From an uncultured Alphaproteobacteria bacterium (GTDB taxonomy: Bacteria; Pseudomonadota; Alphaproteobacteria; Rs-D84), in assembly GCA_944389185.1 (NCBI GenBank), contig CALXLL010000001.1:24061-88060 (forward strand): a stretch of DNA of 64,000 nucleotides. Reading direction: 5' to 3'. Below the pieces are notes generated by a model. It did no database searches. It was not told where the DNA came from and was given only the letters and a program-made list of their open reading frames with translations. The position numbers and the translations under genes were made by a program. This document shows, one piece after another, positions 1 through 51,081 of the stretch (positions are counted from its first letter, which is position 1; each line of letters begins with the position of its first letter).

Positions 1-37
1 AGCGTATAAGCGACTGATAAAAAATAAGGCGTAAGTA

Positions 38-20137: not shown

Positions 20138-20551
20138 ATGGCTATAGATTATGATTTAACTATTAAGAAAGCTTTTTCTGATTGCTTGGAATATTTGAAC
20201 GCCTGTAAGCAAAAAACAAAAAGCTCTTATAGTTATAGTTGCTTGAACTGTAATATACAGTCTTTAAAAAAGATTTCTTCTAACCCAAAGCAGTTCGTTA
20301 ATATTCATAAAAGAGTTAAATATGCTCCGATTGTTTCTATTAATGAAATAAACCCAAAATTTGACCAAACTTTAAATAACTTTTTGGATAAAATAGATTC
20401 TTATTATTCTGCCGAAGCAACCAAGCCAGAAGCAACAAAGGCTTTGGTAGATTCAATAGAATCTTTACACGTTGTTATAGATAAATGTAATTTAAAGACC
20501 TTATGGTTAGATTTAGTAAAGCCAAAAAGATTTCTTGTAAAAACAAGATAA
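20138..20551 (+). CDS. Hypothetical protein
   Basis: 137-aa ORF with AAAGGA RBS, followed by a terminator; no family recognised. Confidence 0.75.
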   Translation: MAIDYDLTIKKAFSDCLEYLNACKQKTKSSYSYSCLNCNIQSLKKISSNPKQFVNIHKRVKYAPIVSINEINPKFDQTLNNFLDKIDSYYSAEATKPEATKALVDSIESLHVVIDKCNLKTLWLDLVKPKRFLVKTR

Positions 20552-20577
20552 AAAAACGGGGATTACCCCGTTTTTTT
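20551..20577. terminator. Bidirectional intrinsic terminator
   Basis: A-tract CGGGG-ATTA-CCCCG T-tract between convergent genes. Confidence 0.85.
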
Positions 20578-21856
20578 AATGTTTACCACCAATTTTAGTT
20601 CTGCCGCCCATCAATGCTTGCAGCTTTTTTGGAATATTTATAGAACCATCTGCATTTTGATGATTTTCTATTATTGGGACCAAAGCACGCGGAACCGCTA
20701 TGCCTGTATTATTAAGCGTTGCAACGTATTTTACTTCACCTGTTGCGTTTTCACGATATCTGGTGTTTGTGCGTCTTGCTTGGAATTGACCTATGGACGA
20801 GCAACTGCCAAGTTCTTTATAGGCGTTTTCGCTTGGAACCCATGCTTCTACGTCATTCATCTTTATTTTGTTAAAGCCCATATCACCAGTAGAATTGGCA
20901 ATAACCCTGTAAGGTAATTCAAAATCTTCCATTACTTCACACAAATTATTCAAAATTAATTCGTGCATAGCGTCAGAGTCTTCAGGTTTACAATATACAT
21001 ATTGTTCTACTTTATTAAATTGATGAAAACGTGCAAGACCACGAGTATCCCGACCAGCCGCACCGGCTTCTTTGCGGAAACACGGTGAAAAACCGGCGTA
21101 TTTAATAGGCAGGACATTTTCAGGTAATATTTCACCGCTATGAAGACTGTTTAATATTATTTCCGCTGTTCCTGCAAGGCATCTGTCTGTTCCTTGTAAA
21201 ATAAATACATCATTGTCCATTACAGATAAGTCAGACCCCATAAAGTGACCGGCGTTAAATATGGTTTGCGGTTTCGTTATTGCAGGGCATTCTATAAATG
21301 TAAAACCTTTGGATATAAGCTTTTGGATAACATAAGTTTCTATAGCTAGCTGTAATTCCGCGGCTTCACCGACCAAGCAATATGTTCTTGTCCCACATAT
21401 TTGTGCTATCTTTTCAGGCATCCACCAATTATTCATATCCAATAAGTCCCACTGTGCACGTGGGGTAAAATCAAACTTTGGTGGTTTGCCAACTCTGCGA
21501 ACTTCAACGTTTGCGCTGTCATCAGGACCAATTGGGGCTTCTGGGCTTGGTATCTGAGGAACGCGATGTAACAAGTCATTTAATTTATCTTCTTTTTCTG
21601 CTAATTCGGCAAGCTCTTCTGCTATCTCTTCACCGATTTCTTTTGATTTTGCAATAAGCGGTGCTTTGTCTGTCGCAGTAGGTATTTCTTTTGTTATTCT
21701 GTTCTTTTCTGCCGTTTTCGTTTGTGTAAGCGTTTTTAATTCGCGAACACGCATATCAAGTGCAAGTATTTCATCAGTAAAATCTTCAAACCCCTTTACT
21801 TTACATGCGTTTTTTACAATTTCTGGGTTTTCACGAATAAATCTTATATCCAACAT
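20576..21856 (-). CDS. serS: Seryl-tRNA synthetase
   Basis: Likely start MLDIRFIRENP at 21856 with AAAGGA RBS; TAE, motif 2 CFRKEAG..RFHQFNKVE, motif 3 TLNNTGIAVPR. Confidence 0.97.
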   Translation of the reverse strand: MLDIRFIRENPEIVKNACKVKGFEDFTDEILALDMRVRELKTLTQTKTAEKNRITKEIPTATDKAPLIAKSKEIGEEIAEELAELAEKEDKLNDLLHRVPQIPSPEAPIGPDDSANVEVRRVGKPPKFDFTPRAQWDLLDMNNWWMPEKIAQICGTRTYCLVGEAAELQLAIETYVIQKLISKGFTFIECPAITKPQTIFNAGHFMGSDLSVMDNDVFILQGTDRCLAGTAEIILNSLHSGEILPENVLPIKYAGFSPCFRKEAGAAGRDTRGLARFHQFNKVEQYVYCKPEDSDAMHELILNNLCEVMEDFELPYRVIANSTGDMGFNKIKMNDVEAWVPSENAYKELGSCSSIGQFQARRTNTRYRENATGEVKYVATLNNTGIAVPRALVPIIENHQNADGSINIPKKLQALMGGRTKIGGKH

Positions 21857-21917
21857 TTTTGTTTCCTTTGGAAGTATAGTTATATTTAAAGTTATTTTGT
21901 TTTTGTGACAACGAAAA

Positions 21918-21971
21918 TTATTCCCCAAAAGGGGATGATGATTTATTAAAAAAACTTGTTTTTAACCACAT
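21918..21971 (-). CDS. Putative serS leader peptide MWLKTSFFNKSSSPFGE
   Basis: 17-codon ORF with TCA TCA TCC run plus one AGT, ending 61 nt before the serS ATG; overlaps TCCCC-TTTT-GGGGA hairpin. Confidence 0.75.
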   Translation of the reverse strand: MWLKTSFFNKSSSPFGE

Positions 21972-21978
21972 GGTTAAA

Positions 21979-22007
21979 ATTATATATAAATTATATATAA
22001 AAATCAA
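21979..22007 (-). promoter_or_regulatory. sigma70-type promoter for the serS leader
   Basis: TTGATT (22007-22002), 17 nt, TATAAT (21984-21979); leader ATG begins 8 nt after the -10 box. Confidence 0.75.
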
Positions 22008-22089
22008 ATATTTTACTGCTTATAAAAAGATTTGCGAAGCTTTGCTTATTATGTTATGCTGACCCAGAAAGGCATTTAGGAGATTTTAT

Positions 22090-23001
22090 ATGAACGACAT
22101 TATTATGCATGATGTTATAATTTTAGGTTCTGGGCCTGCTGGTTTAACTGCTGCGCTTTATTGTGCACGTGCCGGAAAAAAAACATTAGTCCTTGGGGGG
22201 GATAGGTTAGGTGGGCAGACTGCTGGTATCGCGGTGCTGGAAAATTATCCGGGTTGGCAGGGAAGTGGTCAAGAGTTAGCCGAGTTCATGAAAAAACAAG
22301 CAGAAACTTTTGGTGCAGAAATTATTTTTACTTCTGCAAAAAACGTTTCCGGAGATGCAGAAAGCGCTTTCAATATTTTGGCAACAGACGGGAAAAGATA
22401 TGTTGGTAAAACACTTATCATAGCAACAGGTGCTTCCCCGCGTAAGCTGGAAATAGAAGGTGCTCGCGAATTATTCGGTAAAGGCGTTTCTTATTGTGCA
22501 ACTTGTGACGGATTCTTTTATGCATATAAAGACGTTATTGTTTTAGGTGGGGGTAATTCAGCTTTGAACGATGCTTTGTATTTAGCCGATATTGCAAAAA
22601 GCGTAAAAATCGTTTATAGGAAAGCTGCTTTTACGCGCGCCGAAGCCGTATTGCGTAATCGCGTTGCAGAACGAGAAAATATAGAATGCTTGTTTAATAC
22701 AGACTTGAAAAAGATTTCTACGTTACCAGATTCTGATAGGCTTGTTGTGACGACAACCGATGATACGGAAATAATATGTGATGGTTTGTTCGTTGCTATA
22801 GGGCATGAAGCTAATACCGATTATTTACCAGAAGATATTTTACGTGATAATATGGGGCGCTTAATACCATCAGAATTACCAGAAGGTATGTTCGTTGCCG
22901 GTGACGTTCAATCCGAATTAAAAATGCAAATTGCAACCGCTGTTGGGACAGGGTGCAGTTCTGCCATGGATGCAATCGCATATTTAAATTCGCGTGGTTA
23001 A
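22090..23001 (+). CDS. trxB: Thioredoxin reductase
   Basis: GSGPAG, GVSYCATCDG, GGGNSA, FVAIGH, AGDV. Confidence 0.92.
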   Translation: MNDIIMHDVIILGSGPAGLTAALYCARAGKKTLVLGGDRLGGQTAGIAVLENYPGWQGSGQELAEFMKKQAETFGAEIIFTSAKNVSGDAESAFNILATDGKRYVGKTLIIATGASPRKLEIEGARELFGKGVSYCATCDGFFYAYKDVIVLGGGNSALNDALYLADIAKSVKIVYRKAAFTRAEAVLRNRVAERENIECLFNTDLKKISTLPDSDRLVVTTTDDTEIICDGLFVAIGHEANTDYLPEDILRDNMGRLIPSELPEGMFVAGDVQSELKMQIATAVGTGCSSAMDAIAYLNSRG

Positions 23002-49170: not shown

Positions 49171-49199
49171 TTGACTTAGCGACTTTTTGGTATTAATAT
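49171..49199 (+). promoter_or_regulatory. sigma70-type promoter for the thrS leader
   Basis: TTGACT (49171-49176), 17 nt, TAATAT (49194-49199). Confidence 0.7.
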
Positions 49200-49209
49200 A
49201 AAGCTTGTT

Positions 49210-49269
49210 ATGAATTATTTTTGTAAGATTTTCTTTATAACTAATACCACAACCCCTTTGGGGGTATAG
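49210..49269 (+). CDS. Putative thrS leader peptide MNYFCKIFFITNTTTPLGV
   Basis: 19-codon ORF with ACT AAT ACC ACA ACC, ending 78 nt before the thrS ATG; overlaps ACCCC-TTTG-GGGGT hairpin. Confidence 0.75.
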   Translation: MNYFCKIFFITNTTTPLGV

Positions 49270-49347: not shown

Positions 49348-51081
49348 ATGTCTTATCCAATTGAAATGATGCGTCATTCTCTGGCTCATGTTATGGCGGC
49401 CGCCGTTCAAAAATTATTCCCAGATGTTAAGTTCGCAGGTGGACCTGCTATCGAAAATGGTTTCTATTATGACTTTGATACAGAACACCGCTTTTCAGAA
49501 GAAGATTTCGATAAAATTGAAAAGGAAATGCGCGATTTGATAAAGTCTAATGGACGATTTGAACAAAGAAACGTTAGCCTGGAAGAAGCAAAAGAAATAT
49601 TCGCTAATCAACCTTATAAAATGGAGTGGTTGAACGAATATGATGCAGCAGGTGAAGCCTTATCGATATATACTTTTCGTGATTTCGTTGATTTATGTCG
49701 CGGACCGCACGTCGAATCTTCGAAAGATTTACCAAAAGACGGTTTCAAAATTAAAACTGTTGCTGGAGCTTATTGGAAGGGTGACTCTAAAAATAAAATG
49801 CTGCAACGTATTTATGTAGATGCTTTCGCAAGCGCAGAAGAATTACAAGAACATCTTAAAATGATGGAAGAAGCCGCAAACCGCGATAACAGAAAACTGG
49901 GTAAAGAAATGGATTTATTCCATTTTGAACCTGATTATGCTCCGGGTGCCGTTTTCTGGCATGATAAAGGTTATAGAATCTATCGTCGTTTAATAGATTA
50001 TATCCGTATGCGCCAAGAAAAAGCAGGTTATCTGGAAATATCTACACCTTCTGTTATGGATAGGTCTTTGTGGGAACGTAGCGGTCACTGGGCTAAATAT
50101 GGCGAGCATAATTATTCCGGTAAAACCCAAGACGGTAAAACTTTCTGTGTAAAACCTATGTCTTGTCCCGGTGGAATGCTGGTGTTTAGACAAGGTATTA
50201 AGTCTTATAAAGATTTACCTATGTATCTTGCCGAATTCGGCAAAGTAAATCGTTACGAGGCTGCTGGCGGTTTGTCTGGGCTTATGCGCGTGCGTGAGTT
50301 TACTCAGGACGACGCTCACATATTTTGCACAGAAGAACAATTAGAAGAAGAAGTAGTTAAAGTTTTGCGCTTTATCAAAGATATTTATAGTAAGTTCGGA
50401 TTCGATAAAATATCTATGAAACTGGCAACAAGAAAAGAGTCCGAATTCCGTATCGGTTCAGATGAAATATGGGATAAAGCTGAAGGCGCGTTAAAGCATG
50501 CTTTGGATGCAAACGGTATCGAATATGAAATTGCCGAAGGTGACGCCGCTTTTTATGGACCAAAGATTGATAATTACTTGAAAGATTCTATGGGGCGCGT
50601 ATGGCAGTGCGGAACGGTGCAGTTAGATATGAATCTTCCTGAAAGATTTGACTTATCTTATATCGGGGAAGACGGAGAAAAACATCGTCCGATTATGTTG
50701 CACCGTGCTATGCTGGGGTCAATAGAACGTTTTATGGGGATTTTGCTAGAATCAACAGGTGGTAATTTACCTTTGTGGTTGTCACCAGAACCTGTAGTAG
50801 TAGTTCCTGTCTCCGAAAGATTTAAGGATTATGCAGAAGAAGTAGTTAATTCTTTGGAAGAGGTCGGTGTTAAATGTCATGCTGACTTGCGCGACGAAAA
50901 GGTTAACTATAAAATCCGTGAATTATCTTTATCTAAAACACCGATTATAGCCGTGGTCGGTGAAAAAGAAATGACAGATAAAAACGTAACTTTGCGTTAT
51001 CTTGGACAAGAAAAACAAGAAGTTATGCCTTTGGCTGATTTCGTAGAGAAAATGAAAAACGAAGTAAAAATGCCGAAGTAA
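49348..51081 (+). CDS. thrS: Threonyl-tRNA synthetase (no N-terminal TGS domain)
   Basis: RHSLAH, DLCRGPH, KPMSCPG, GLMRVREFTQDDAHIF, AFYGPK, HRAMLGSIERF. Confidence 0.98.
   Translation: MSYPIEMMRHSLAHVMAAAVQKLFPDVKFAGGPAIENGFYYDFDTEHRFSEEDFDKIEKEMRDLIKSNGRFEQRNVSLEEAKEIFANQPYKMEWLNEYDAAGEALSIYTFRDFVDLCRGPHVESSKDLPKDGFKIKTVAGAYWKGDSKNKMLQRIYVDAFASAEELQEHLKMMEEAANRDNRKLGKEMDLFHFEPDYAPGAVFWHDKGYRIYRRLIDYIRMRQEKAGYLEISTPSVMDRSLWERSGHWAKYGEHNYSGKTQDGKTFCVKPMSCPGGMLVFRQGIKSYKDLPMYLAEFGKVNRYEAAGGLSGLMRVREFTQDDAHIFCTEEQLEEEVVKVLRFIKDIYSKFGFDKISMKLATRKESEFRIGSDEIWDKAEGALKHALDANGIEYEIAEGDAAFYGPKIDNYLKDSMGRVWQCGTVQLDMNLPERFDLSYIGEDGEKHRPIMLHRAMLGSIERFMGILLESTGGNLPLWLSPEPVVVVPVSERFKDYAEEVVNSLEEVGVKCHADLRDEKVNYKIRELSLSKTPIIAVVGEKEMTDKNVTLRYLGQEKQEVMPLADFVEKMKNEVKMPK

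Follow-up and report, generated by a model that had tools for sequence, protein, structure and literature searches.

How is the gene for seryl-tRNA synthetase controlled in an uncultured alphaproteobacterium with a reduced genome? We examined 64,000 nucleotides (nt) of DNA from an uncultured Alphaproteobacteria bacterium of the order Rs-D84 (GenBank assembly GCA_944389185.1, contig CALXLL010000001.1, positions 24,061 to 88,060 of the forward strand). We will call this whole stretch the window. Just upstream of the window's serS gene is a short open reading frame (ORF) whose serine codons run into a hairpin. A preliminary description of the window suggested that this ORF is a serine sensor. We found that the arrangement is conserved upstream of serS in relatives and that, upstream of the genes for other tRNA synthetases, the codon run switches to match the synthetase. 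We propose that the serS leader is a cis-acting leader-peptide sensor, probably a leaderless or near-leaderless attenuator for serS. And the serS leader and its sisters very probably let the ribosome report the supply of an amino acid to the corresponding synthetase gene.

The serS leader in the window

All coordinates are positions in the window unless a contig is named, and the serS leader is read on the minus strand. A promoter-pattern scan gave a putative promoter, P1, with the -35 hexamer TTGATT (22002..22007) and, after a 17-nt spacer, the -10 hexamer TATAAT (21979..21984). Just 7 nt (TTTAACC) separate the -10 hexamer from the ATG (21971-21969) of the upstream ORF (uORF). The uORF (21918..21971) has 17 codons and a TAA stop (21920-21918), and encodes MWLKTSFFNKSSSPFGE (here and below, peptides are written up to their stop codons). 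Its codons are ATG TGG TTA AAA ACA AGT TTT TTT AAT AAA TCA TCA TCC CCT TTT GGG GAA TAA. Serine accounts for 4 of the 17 codons, three of them consecutive: TCA TCA TCC, codons 11-13, is at 21933..21941, and the fourth serine codon, AGT, is at 21954-21956. The last serine codon (TCC) is also the first three bases of the 5' arm of a hairpin, TCCCC-TTTT-GGGGA (21922..21935; -9.1 kcal/mol by RNA fold), which is in the list of terminator-like elements from a simple scan. 3' of the hairpin we find ATAATTTTCG; the U-rich, interrupted tail (A TAA TTTT CGTTG, 21909..21921) holds the uORF's stop codon. A 61-nt spacer (21857..21917), with the Shine-Dalgarno sequence AAGGA at 21864-21868, then leads to serS. 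The preliminary description had the promoter, the spacing, the uORF, the hairpin and the imperfect U-tract in their right places.

serS itself (20576..21856, minus strand) encodes a full-length seryl-tRNA synthetase (SerRS) of 426 amino acids (TIGR00414, 402.9 bits versus a cut-off of 301.65). It starts at ATG 21856, not at TTG 21928, because AAGGA lies 5' of this ATG and because the N-terminus that follows, MLDI(R/K)FIRENP, is kept in 30 of 30 relatives examined. The preliminary description had warned that the ORF list stretches serS to TTG 21928, and this is indeed an artefact.

By itself, the match to P1 is at chance level: this AT-rich region of the window has 7 promoter-like sites, versus 6.4 expected. 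We therefore turn to the relatives.

Conservation among relatives

The same promoter, uORF and hairpin are found 5' of serS at 11 of 24 loci from the same genus (one of the 11 ends at a contig edge). In other families, 3 of 6 loci have a serS leader. One of these is canonical, and two have compensated stems: TCA TCA TCC GCC..GCGGA (pairing TCCGC with GCGGA) and GTA TCC CAC TAA GGTGGG (pairing CCCAC with GTGGG, with the stop codon in the loop).

We also scanned the 328 genomes of the order, of which 256 are species genomes from this genus, with a strict pattern: TCATCCCC-N3-7-GGGG, followed at 60-90 or 91-121 nt by the start of serS. The pattern matched 71 genomes at the shorter spacing and 37 at the longer one, or 107 distinct genomes, where the hairpin and two serine codons (TCA TCC) are fixed by design. 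The reversed pattern, as a control, matched 0 of 328 genomes at both spacings. The count of 107 is a lower bound, as the pattern missed the four nearest relatives (SerRS 89-90% identical), whose fifth serS codon, within the anchor, is CGA (Arg). All four carry MI(K/H)..YSSPFGV(R/C)FNY behind a TATGAT box. Counts across relatives do not represent independent events.

Is the uORF kept as a reading frame? The preliminary description held that relatives in which the serine codons are missing, or are out of frame with an ATG, would speak against a sensor. There are 62 distinct sequences from relatives with the hairpin 5' of serS, and TCA TCC is in frame with an ATG in 61 of them; the sole exception is cut at a contig end. 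We analysed 61 distinct leaders. All 61 have the in-frame ATG, and 60 have a promoter-like TTGNNN-16..18-TANNNT that ends 5-11 nt 5' of it. The distance from the -10 element to the ATG is 9 nt (33 leaders), 10 nt (18), 8 nt (6) or 7 nt (3), with one leader unassigned. This spacing implies a 5' untranslated region of 0-3 nt. It leaves no space for a Shine-Dalgarno sequence, so the RNA would have to begin at the AUG or no more than about 3 nt from it.

The length of the frame is nearly fixed as well: from the ATG to the penultimate serine there are 12 codons in 49 leaders and 13 codons in the other 12. The stop codon (TAA in 47 leaders, TAG in 12 and TGA in 2) is always in frame shortly 3' of the hairpin. 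The consensus peptide is M-x3-F-x-F-F-S-x-x-S-S-P-[LF]-G-[EV]. The N-terminal residues are barely conserved, and two phenylalanine positions alternate between TTT and TTC. The residue just before the fixed TCA, a position that the pattern leaves free, is serine in 36 of the 61 leaders. Three codons before the fixed TCA, 39 of 61 leaders have serine, with AGT (29), AGC (2) and TCT (5) among the codons used. So the alignment of relatives that the preliminary description called for does turn up synonymous changes, with AGY and TCN codons at one further serine position, and such a mixture is hard to explain by selection on the RNA sequence. Overall, serine makes up 23.9% of the residues of serS leader peptides, versus 7.0% in the genome's long ORFs. 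These patterns argue, indirectly, that the serS uORF is a translated frame and not an RNA motif alone.

In the relatives matched by the pattern, the CCCC/GGGG stem is kept and the loop varies. The conserved G+C hairpins of 5 base pairs (bp) have folding energies of -6.5 to -9.4 kcal/mol, and lie 59-102 nt from the start of serS. Across the 61 leaders, the 12 nt 3' of the stem contain 5.4 T on average. And 30 of the 61 spacers contain a second promoter-like element (TTGNNN-16..18-TANNNT, such as TTTACA-17-TAGAAT or TTGCGA-17-TAACAT), versus 4.8 expected from shuffled sequences. In the window's own spacer we noticed, by eye, only a weak one (TTGTCA-17-TAAATA).

A sister leader upstream of thrS

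A genome-wide scan for leaderless short ORFs that end at a hairpin identified a second leader in the window, on the plus strand upstream of thrS. Its -35 hexamer, TTGACT (49171-49176), and -10 hexamer, TAATAT (49194-49199), are separated by 17 nt, and 10 nt further on is the ATG (49210) of a uORF (49210-49269) that encodes MNYFCKIFFITNTTTPLGV, with a run of threonines. The uORF contains the hairpin ACCCC-TTTG-GGGGT (49252-49265). thrS (49348-51081; TIGR00418, 693 bits) begins after another 78 nt.

Leaders with threonine runs (ending in FFTTTTTTPLGV) lie 5' of thrS at all 23 usable loci from the genus and at 3 of 6 loci from other families. Their peptides are 29.8% threonine (versus a background of 6.1%) and contain 0.3 serines each. 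When the Ser and Thr leaders are aligned, the start, the F-F block, the hairpin and the stop are common to both, and the codon run differs.

The genome (0.8 Mb, 15 contigs, 37% G+C) has just 9 CCCC-N3-7-GGGG sites, and of these only the two in the serS and thrS leaders are within short ORFs. Genome-wide scans found no further copies in this genome besides the thrS leader. A covariance model of the Ser/Thr scaffold, run against 41 genomes, found 27 thrS leaders, 10 serS leaders, 2 contig ends and nothing else; as the model was built from these same leaders, the informative part is the absence of other matches. A Leu/Phe-rich candidate on contig C6 was rejected, as it is antisense inside a gene.

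We also noticed that the thrS leader is followed by a good promoter-like sequence, TTGCGA-17-TATAAT, whose -35 region and spacer form a small inverted repeat. This repeat is compensated in relatives (GCGA/TCGC, GCGG/CCGC, GCAC/GTGC).

Leaders upstream of hisS, trpS and ileS

We surveyed about 19 synthetase genes, and 5 of them (serS, thrS, hisS, trpS and ileS) have leaders rich in the cognate codon. In the window genome (G000), the hisS leader, MFYNALFFAGFHHTRMGGCF, is on contig C13 (2643-2705, minus strand), and its CAT CAC codons run into the hairpin CACCC-GTAT-GGGTG. This leader is present at 16 of 16 usable loci from the genus (one with a GTG start, by eye) and at 0 of 7 loci from other families. 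Its stems are compensated (GCCC/GGGC, GCCAC/GTGGC, GCTG/CAGC). The trpS leader, MIDFDSYFVNLVWWRR (ending in VWWRR), is on contig C8 (16141-16191, minus strand); TGG TGG is the 5' arm of its hairpin, and the stop codon is in the loop. It is found at 6 of 17 loci from the genus and 3 of 12 loci from other families. The ileS leader, MKQLNIIIIR, is on contig C3 (37630-37662, minus strand). It has alternative pairings (by eye) and a canonical U-run terminator. All 15 loci from the genus have it (14 by script and 1 by eye), with 6-7 U at the terminator. One ileS leader from another family, MFQINQEIIFRIPVWGN, is instead built on the scaffold TCCCC-GTTT-GGGGA. In the single-hairpin leaders, the sensing codons always abut the 5' arm of the hairpin or form it.

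The codon run thus switches with the synthetase gene downstream. This cognate-codon rule is the signature of ribosome-mediated sensing of tRNA charging, and it is one reason why we favour attenuation. It also agrees with the preliminary description's idea of a serine sensor: the conserved frame, together with Thr, His, Trp and Ile sisters at the matching genes, makes that idea likely.

We considered two explanations in which the uORF's codons are incidental. First, SerRS itself might bind the hairpin as an operator, for instance if the hairpin imitates tRNA-Ser's long variable arm. A precedent is thrS of E. coli, whose autoregulation relies on an RNA mimic (touched on in PMC2965389), and here too a G+C stem-loop sits in the leader of a synthetase gene. 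However, the identical CCCC/GGGG hairpin is also found 5' of thrS and, in one family, of ileS, so it is not specific to SerRS. Furthermore, an operator would leave the in-frame ATG, the fixed length and the mix of AGY and TCN serine codons unexplained. We also compared the hairpin to the variable arms of tRNA-Ser (UGA, GGA and CGA) and rejected mimicry of these, as the stem orientation and the loops differ. We consider a SerRS operator to be very improbable.

Second, the uORF might be an independent small gene, or a chance ORF, with its own terminator, and serS might be expressed from a separate promoter downstream. The second promoter-like element in about half of the spacers fits with this, as does the chance-level match to P1 in the window. 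But this does not explain why the amino-acid run changes with the downstream synthetase in five gene families, or why evolution has kept the codon run, the length and the hairpin but little of the peptide's N-terminus. And the motif is nowhere else in the 41 genomes, nor elsewhere in the window genome. We give this explanation very little credence. Both ideas are difficult to maintain when one hairpin serves several synthetases and the peptide differs from gene to gene.

For 10 other synthetase genes of the window genome (proS, glyQS, valS, leuS, aspS, gltX, tyrS, pheS, argS and alaS), we saw no convincing leader upstream. At both lysS and metG, a canonical terminator lies about 30 nt 5' of the ribosome-binding site, too close for a promoter to fit in between, and there are short ORFs upstream (MKINSKKSYN for lysS, MRMQN for metG). 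The ORF upstream of cysS, MRLFNINIYCCQSFH, comes with a Shine-Dalgarno sequence of its own. These upstream features of lysS, metG and cysS are possible candidates for further attenuators. Upstream of aspS (contig C1) are about 130 nt of G+C-rich leader that look structured, with several repeats resembling hairpins and without a cognate ORF; this may be another type of RNA element.

A proposed mechanism for the serS leader

We propose that transcription begins from a sigma-70-type promoter, at the AUG or about 3 nt away from it at most, and that a ribosome then translates the 17-codon frame, with its run of serine codons near the end. If seryl-tRNA is scarce, the ribosome would stall on the serine codons, and its footprint would cover the 5' arm of the hairpin. 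With the hairpin blocked, transcription from P1 would run on into serS. If seryl-tRNA is plentiful, or if no ribosome is close behind the polymerase, then the hairpin would form, and many transcripts would end or pause before serS. In this scheme the hairpin may be a weak terminator or a pause signal. That the last sensing codon always overlaps the hairpin arm suggests such a minimal mechanism, by ribosome occlusion. In size, the 5-bp G+C stems with tetraloops match genuine terminators of neighbouring genes, such as CACCC-GTTT-GGGTG followed by seven T. Where there is a second promoter element, a constitutive promoter next to the gene might be combined with a regulated promoter upstream.

Many thrS leaders, and some of the serS leaders, clearly have a second element on their 3' side, either a hairpin or a promoter. 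The second promoter is very clear 5' of thrS and hisS (TTGCGA-17-TATAAT; TGATATAAT). An automated count of second hairpins with at least 3 G-C pairs gave modest numbers, in 12 of 26 and 8 of 61 leaders, and we confine our conclusions to the enrichment of the promoter-like element.

Several observations weigh against attenuation, or at least against its classical form. The tail of the serS leader is not a canonical tract of 7-8 U, unlike those of the terminators of neighbouring genes: it is interrupted by AAUAA or the stop codon, which might make for weak termination or none. Neither folding of single sequences nor RNAalifold with 23 thrS leaders found a mutually exclusive antiterminator. RNAalifold gave a single hairpin only, and the genus showed no covariation. 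Without the antiterminator of classical attenuators, the serS and thrS leaders would resemble an attenuator only in a minimal form, if at all. The fold of the whole serS leader in the window is not unusual (z = -1.39); because the promoter match and the fold are unremarkable on their own, the significance of the leader rests on its conservation. The leader is absent from 13 of the 24 loci from the genus, so it is dispensable. (At these 13 loci, serS is directly behind trxB or another gene, or else behind a short spacer that lacks the leader.) In species with a second promoter, serS may not depend on read-through. And the kinetics are puzzling, as a ribosome that has arrived at the stop codon should mask the hairpin too. 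For termination to occur when serine is replete, ribosomes would need to lag behind the polymerase, or the polymerase would need to pause.

Given the imperfect U-tract and the missing antiterminator, we also considered that the same stalling ribosome might act on the finished RNA, by affecting pausing, the stability of the RNA or how accessible the ribosome-binding site of serS is. The leaderless poly-Cys ORFs of mycobacteria are a precedent, as these sensing ORFs are reported to control translation of the gene that follows (10.1101/834739). However, the hairpin is 59-102 nt away from the serS start and its loops vary freely, and we saw no conserved complementarity to the Shine-Dalgarno sequence in the leaders of relatives (by eye, with no formal test). 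Also, the textbook terminator of the ileS leader, with its 6-7 U, suggests that the group acts on transcription. So this seems unlikely to us.

Alternatively, the logic might be reversed. In that case the leader would be a gauge of coupling: only a ribosome that follows the polymerase closely would prevent the hairpin from forming, unhindered translation would lead to read-through, and a stall at the upstream Ser or Phe codons would lower the expression of serS. The likely geometry of the footprint allows for this, as F-x-F-F-S is far enough upstream that a ribosome stalled there would leave the hairpin free. But it is the codons overlapping the hairpin arm that are the invariant sensing codons, both in the Ser, Thr, His and Trp leaders and in one Ile leader. 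And making less synthetase during an amino-acid shortage would be the opposite of known controls of synthetases, such as the T-box and the pheST attenuator. A reversed response therefore seems quite improbable.

Returning to attenuation by a stalled ribosome, we can also ask what the five kinds of leaders have in common. We tentatively suggest that genome-reduced Alphaproteobacteria of the gut run a ribosome-read regulon of synthetase genes from one minimal and copyable module, which was duplicated and re-coded, and that this works without an antiterminator. We see this broader idea as plausible and no better than that. The module would comprise three things: its promoter, a leaderless ORF about 13 codons long, and a single hairpin, the 5' arm of which begins within the final sensing codon. 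It would be re-coded as TCC-CC for Ser, ACC-CC for Thr and ATC-CC for Ile, with related forms for His and Trp. The stalled ribosome would directly occlude the hairpin, whether this is a terminator or a pause signal.

Distribution beyond the genus

We scanned 185,579 genomes, one per species, for the exact pattern and obtained 100 stretches. In 45 of these, a serS gene (at least 75% identical) starts 84-115 nt after the motif. Among the 80 of the 100 stretches that were listed with their taxa, those linked to serS are from Candidatus Enterousia or from metagenome-assembled genomes of (Alpha)proteobacteria. The other 55 stretches lack serS at the locus. A few of them are from the same group and are cut at a contig end, and the rest are from unrelated taxa, in about the number expected by chance, which we put at roughly 70. 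Among sequencing runs, all in the form of contigs, a search listed 9: two contain half or more of the sequence words, and two recorded as RNA contain shares of 0.05-0.07. We take none of these as evidence of expression or habitat.

To sample the class outside this order, we fetched 29 serS loci, of which 24 had usable upstream regions, and one of these (locus L296, from genome G358) carries a Ser leader. Its peptide is MLKAFFNIAVSSKSSPSGV, its promoter is TTGCAT-17-TAAGAT followed by 9 nt and the ATG, and its hairpin is CCCC-GTCC-GGGG. The genome is 0.9 Mb, and its SerRS is only 49% identical. So, by genome taxonomy, the element reaches beyond the order.

Three short Ser-rich frames in the sample of the class were rejected because they are off-frame inside tatC. 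The bare motif CCCC-N3-7-GGGG, which we tried in five other genomes, has 18-97 matches on each strand, with high numbers for the reversed control as well, and is too unspecific to be of use.

Candidatus Enterousia, from the order Rs-D84, is described as having genomes of under 1 Mb without pathways for amino-acid biosynthesis (PMC12306168). The missing biosynthesis fits with having sensors on synthetase genes rather than on biosynthetic operons. As judged by titles and the beginnings of abstracts, none of the Enterousia papers that our search turned up deals with gene regulation.

Comparison to known systems

To our knowledge, textbook accounts of the control of synthetase genes cover only three schemes: the T-box, autoregulation of the ThrRS type, and the pheST attenuator.

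Classical attenuators are known 5' of trpS and leuS in Streptomyces and of pheST in gamma-proteobacteria (PMC1262725). As in those systems, a short upstream ORF that is rich in the cognate codon would control a synthetase gene via ribosome stalling. Those attenuators have alternative hairpins, whereas the serS leader has a single hairpin, with its 5' arm in the sensing codon, and we found no antiterminator. Also, the transcript here would be leaderless or nearly so, and the genes are different (serS, thrS and hisS). It is the ileS leader of the window genome that resembles the classical attenuators.

In mycobacteria, leaderless poly-Cys ORFs are reported to be cysteine-responsive attenuators, with several loci answering to one amino acid via the ribosome (10.1101/834739). 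Like these, our uORFs have a run of one type of codon, and they would be sensing ORFs that are leaderless or nearly so. Unlike in mycobacteria, the hairpin here is well upstream of the gene's start and resembles a weak terminator, and the targets are synthetases, each with its own amino acid. A His leader peptide is predicted 5' of hisS paralogues in bacilli (PMC2965389). That too is a uORF with His codons before a gene of the histidyl-tRNA synthetase family, but it is from another phylum, we claim no sequence likeness, and in our hisS leader CAT CAC starts the hairpin arm.

The T-box leaders of Firmicutes perform the same task, making more synthetase when the cognate tRNA is uncharged. However, the T-box binds the tRNA directly and needs no translation. 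When we compared the serS and thrS leaders to Rfam, with permissive filters and up to E = 10, we found no T-box and no leader family (the best hit had E = 0.58). There was also no match, up to the same limit, to Rfam's models of amino-acid leaders (Thr, His, Trp, Leu and Phe).

In the pyrBI attenuator of E. coli, a single terminator hairpin in or at the end of the leader ORF is blocked by a close-following ribosome. pyrBI differs from our proposal in that it senses UTP via polymerase pausing, not an amino acid via the choice of codons.

We searched the full text of the literature (supplements were outside the scope) and found no Ser or Thr leader peptide 5' of serS or thrS. Control of synthetase genes by leader peptides is already known; what appears to be new here is the proposed specificity for serS and thrS and the minimal form with a single hairpin.

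Genes around serS

The gap between serS and the divergent gene trxB is 233 nt and houses the promoter, the uORF and the hairpin. trxB (22090-23001, plus strand) matches TIGR01292 with 281 bits, which is under the model's cut-off of 343. Its own promoter may be at about 22030-22062 in the plus sense: by eye, we see TTGCGN, then about 17 nt, then TGTTATGCTG, which resembles an extended -10 element. This promoter appears (also by eye) to be conserved across the genus. The orientation of trxB flips between species. It is either divergent from serS, with the serS leader in between, or co-directional, with serS right behind it and without the leader.

On the other side, a 137-amino-acid ORF (20138-20551, plus strand) adjoins the 3' end of serS. 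It is in a stretch with 26% G+C, versus about 38% around it.

Implications

These results correct the gene calls, as the start of serS moves to ATG 21856, and the short leader ORFs merit annotation. The element would add two or three new amino-acid specificities to the known leader peptides of synthetase genes. Its architecture is very small, at about 65 nt with one hairpin, and it poses the question of how a hairpin discriminates between a stalled ribosome and a passing one. As one scaffold that is naturally re-coded for different amino acids, it could also make an appealing, compact sensor of tRNA charging for synthetic biology. For this uncultured, genome-reduced lineage of the gut, it offers a first look at gene regulation. 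And if these bacteria do use one re-coded module across their synthetase genes, it would be their chief means of keeping each synthetase in step with how much of its amino acid is available.

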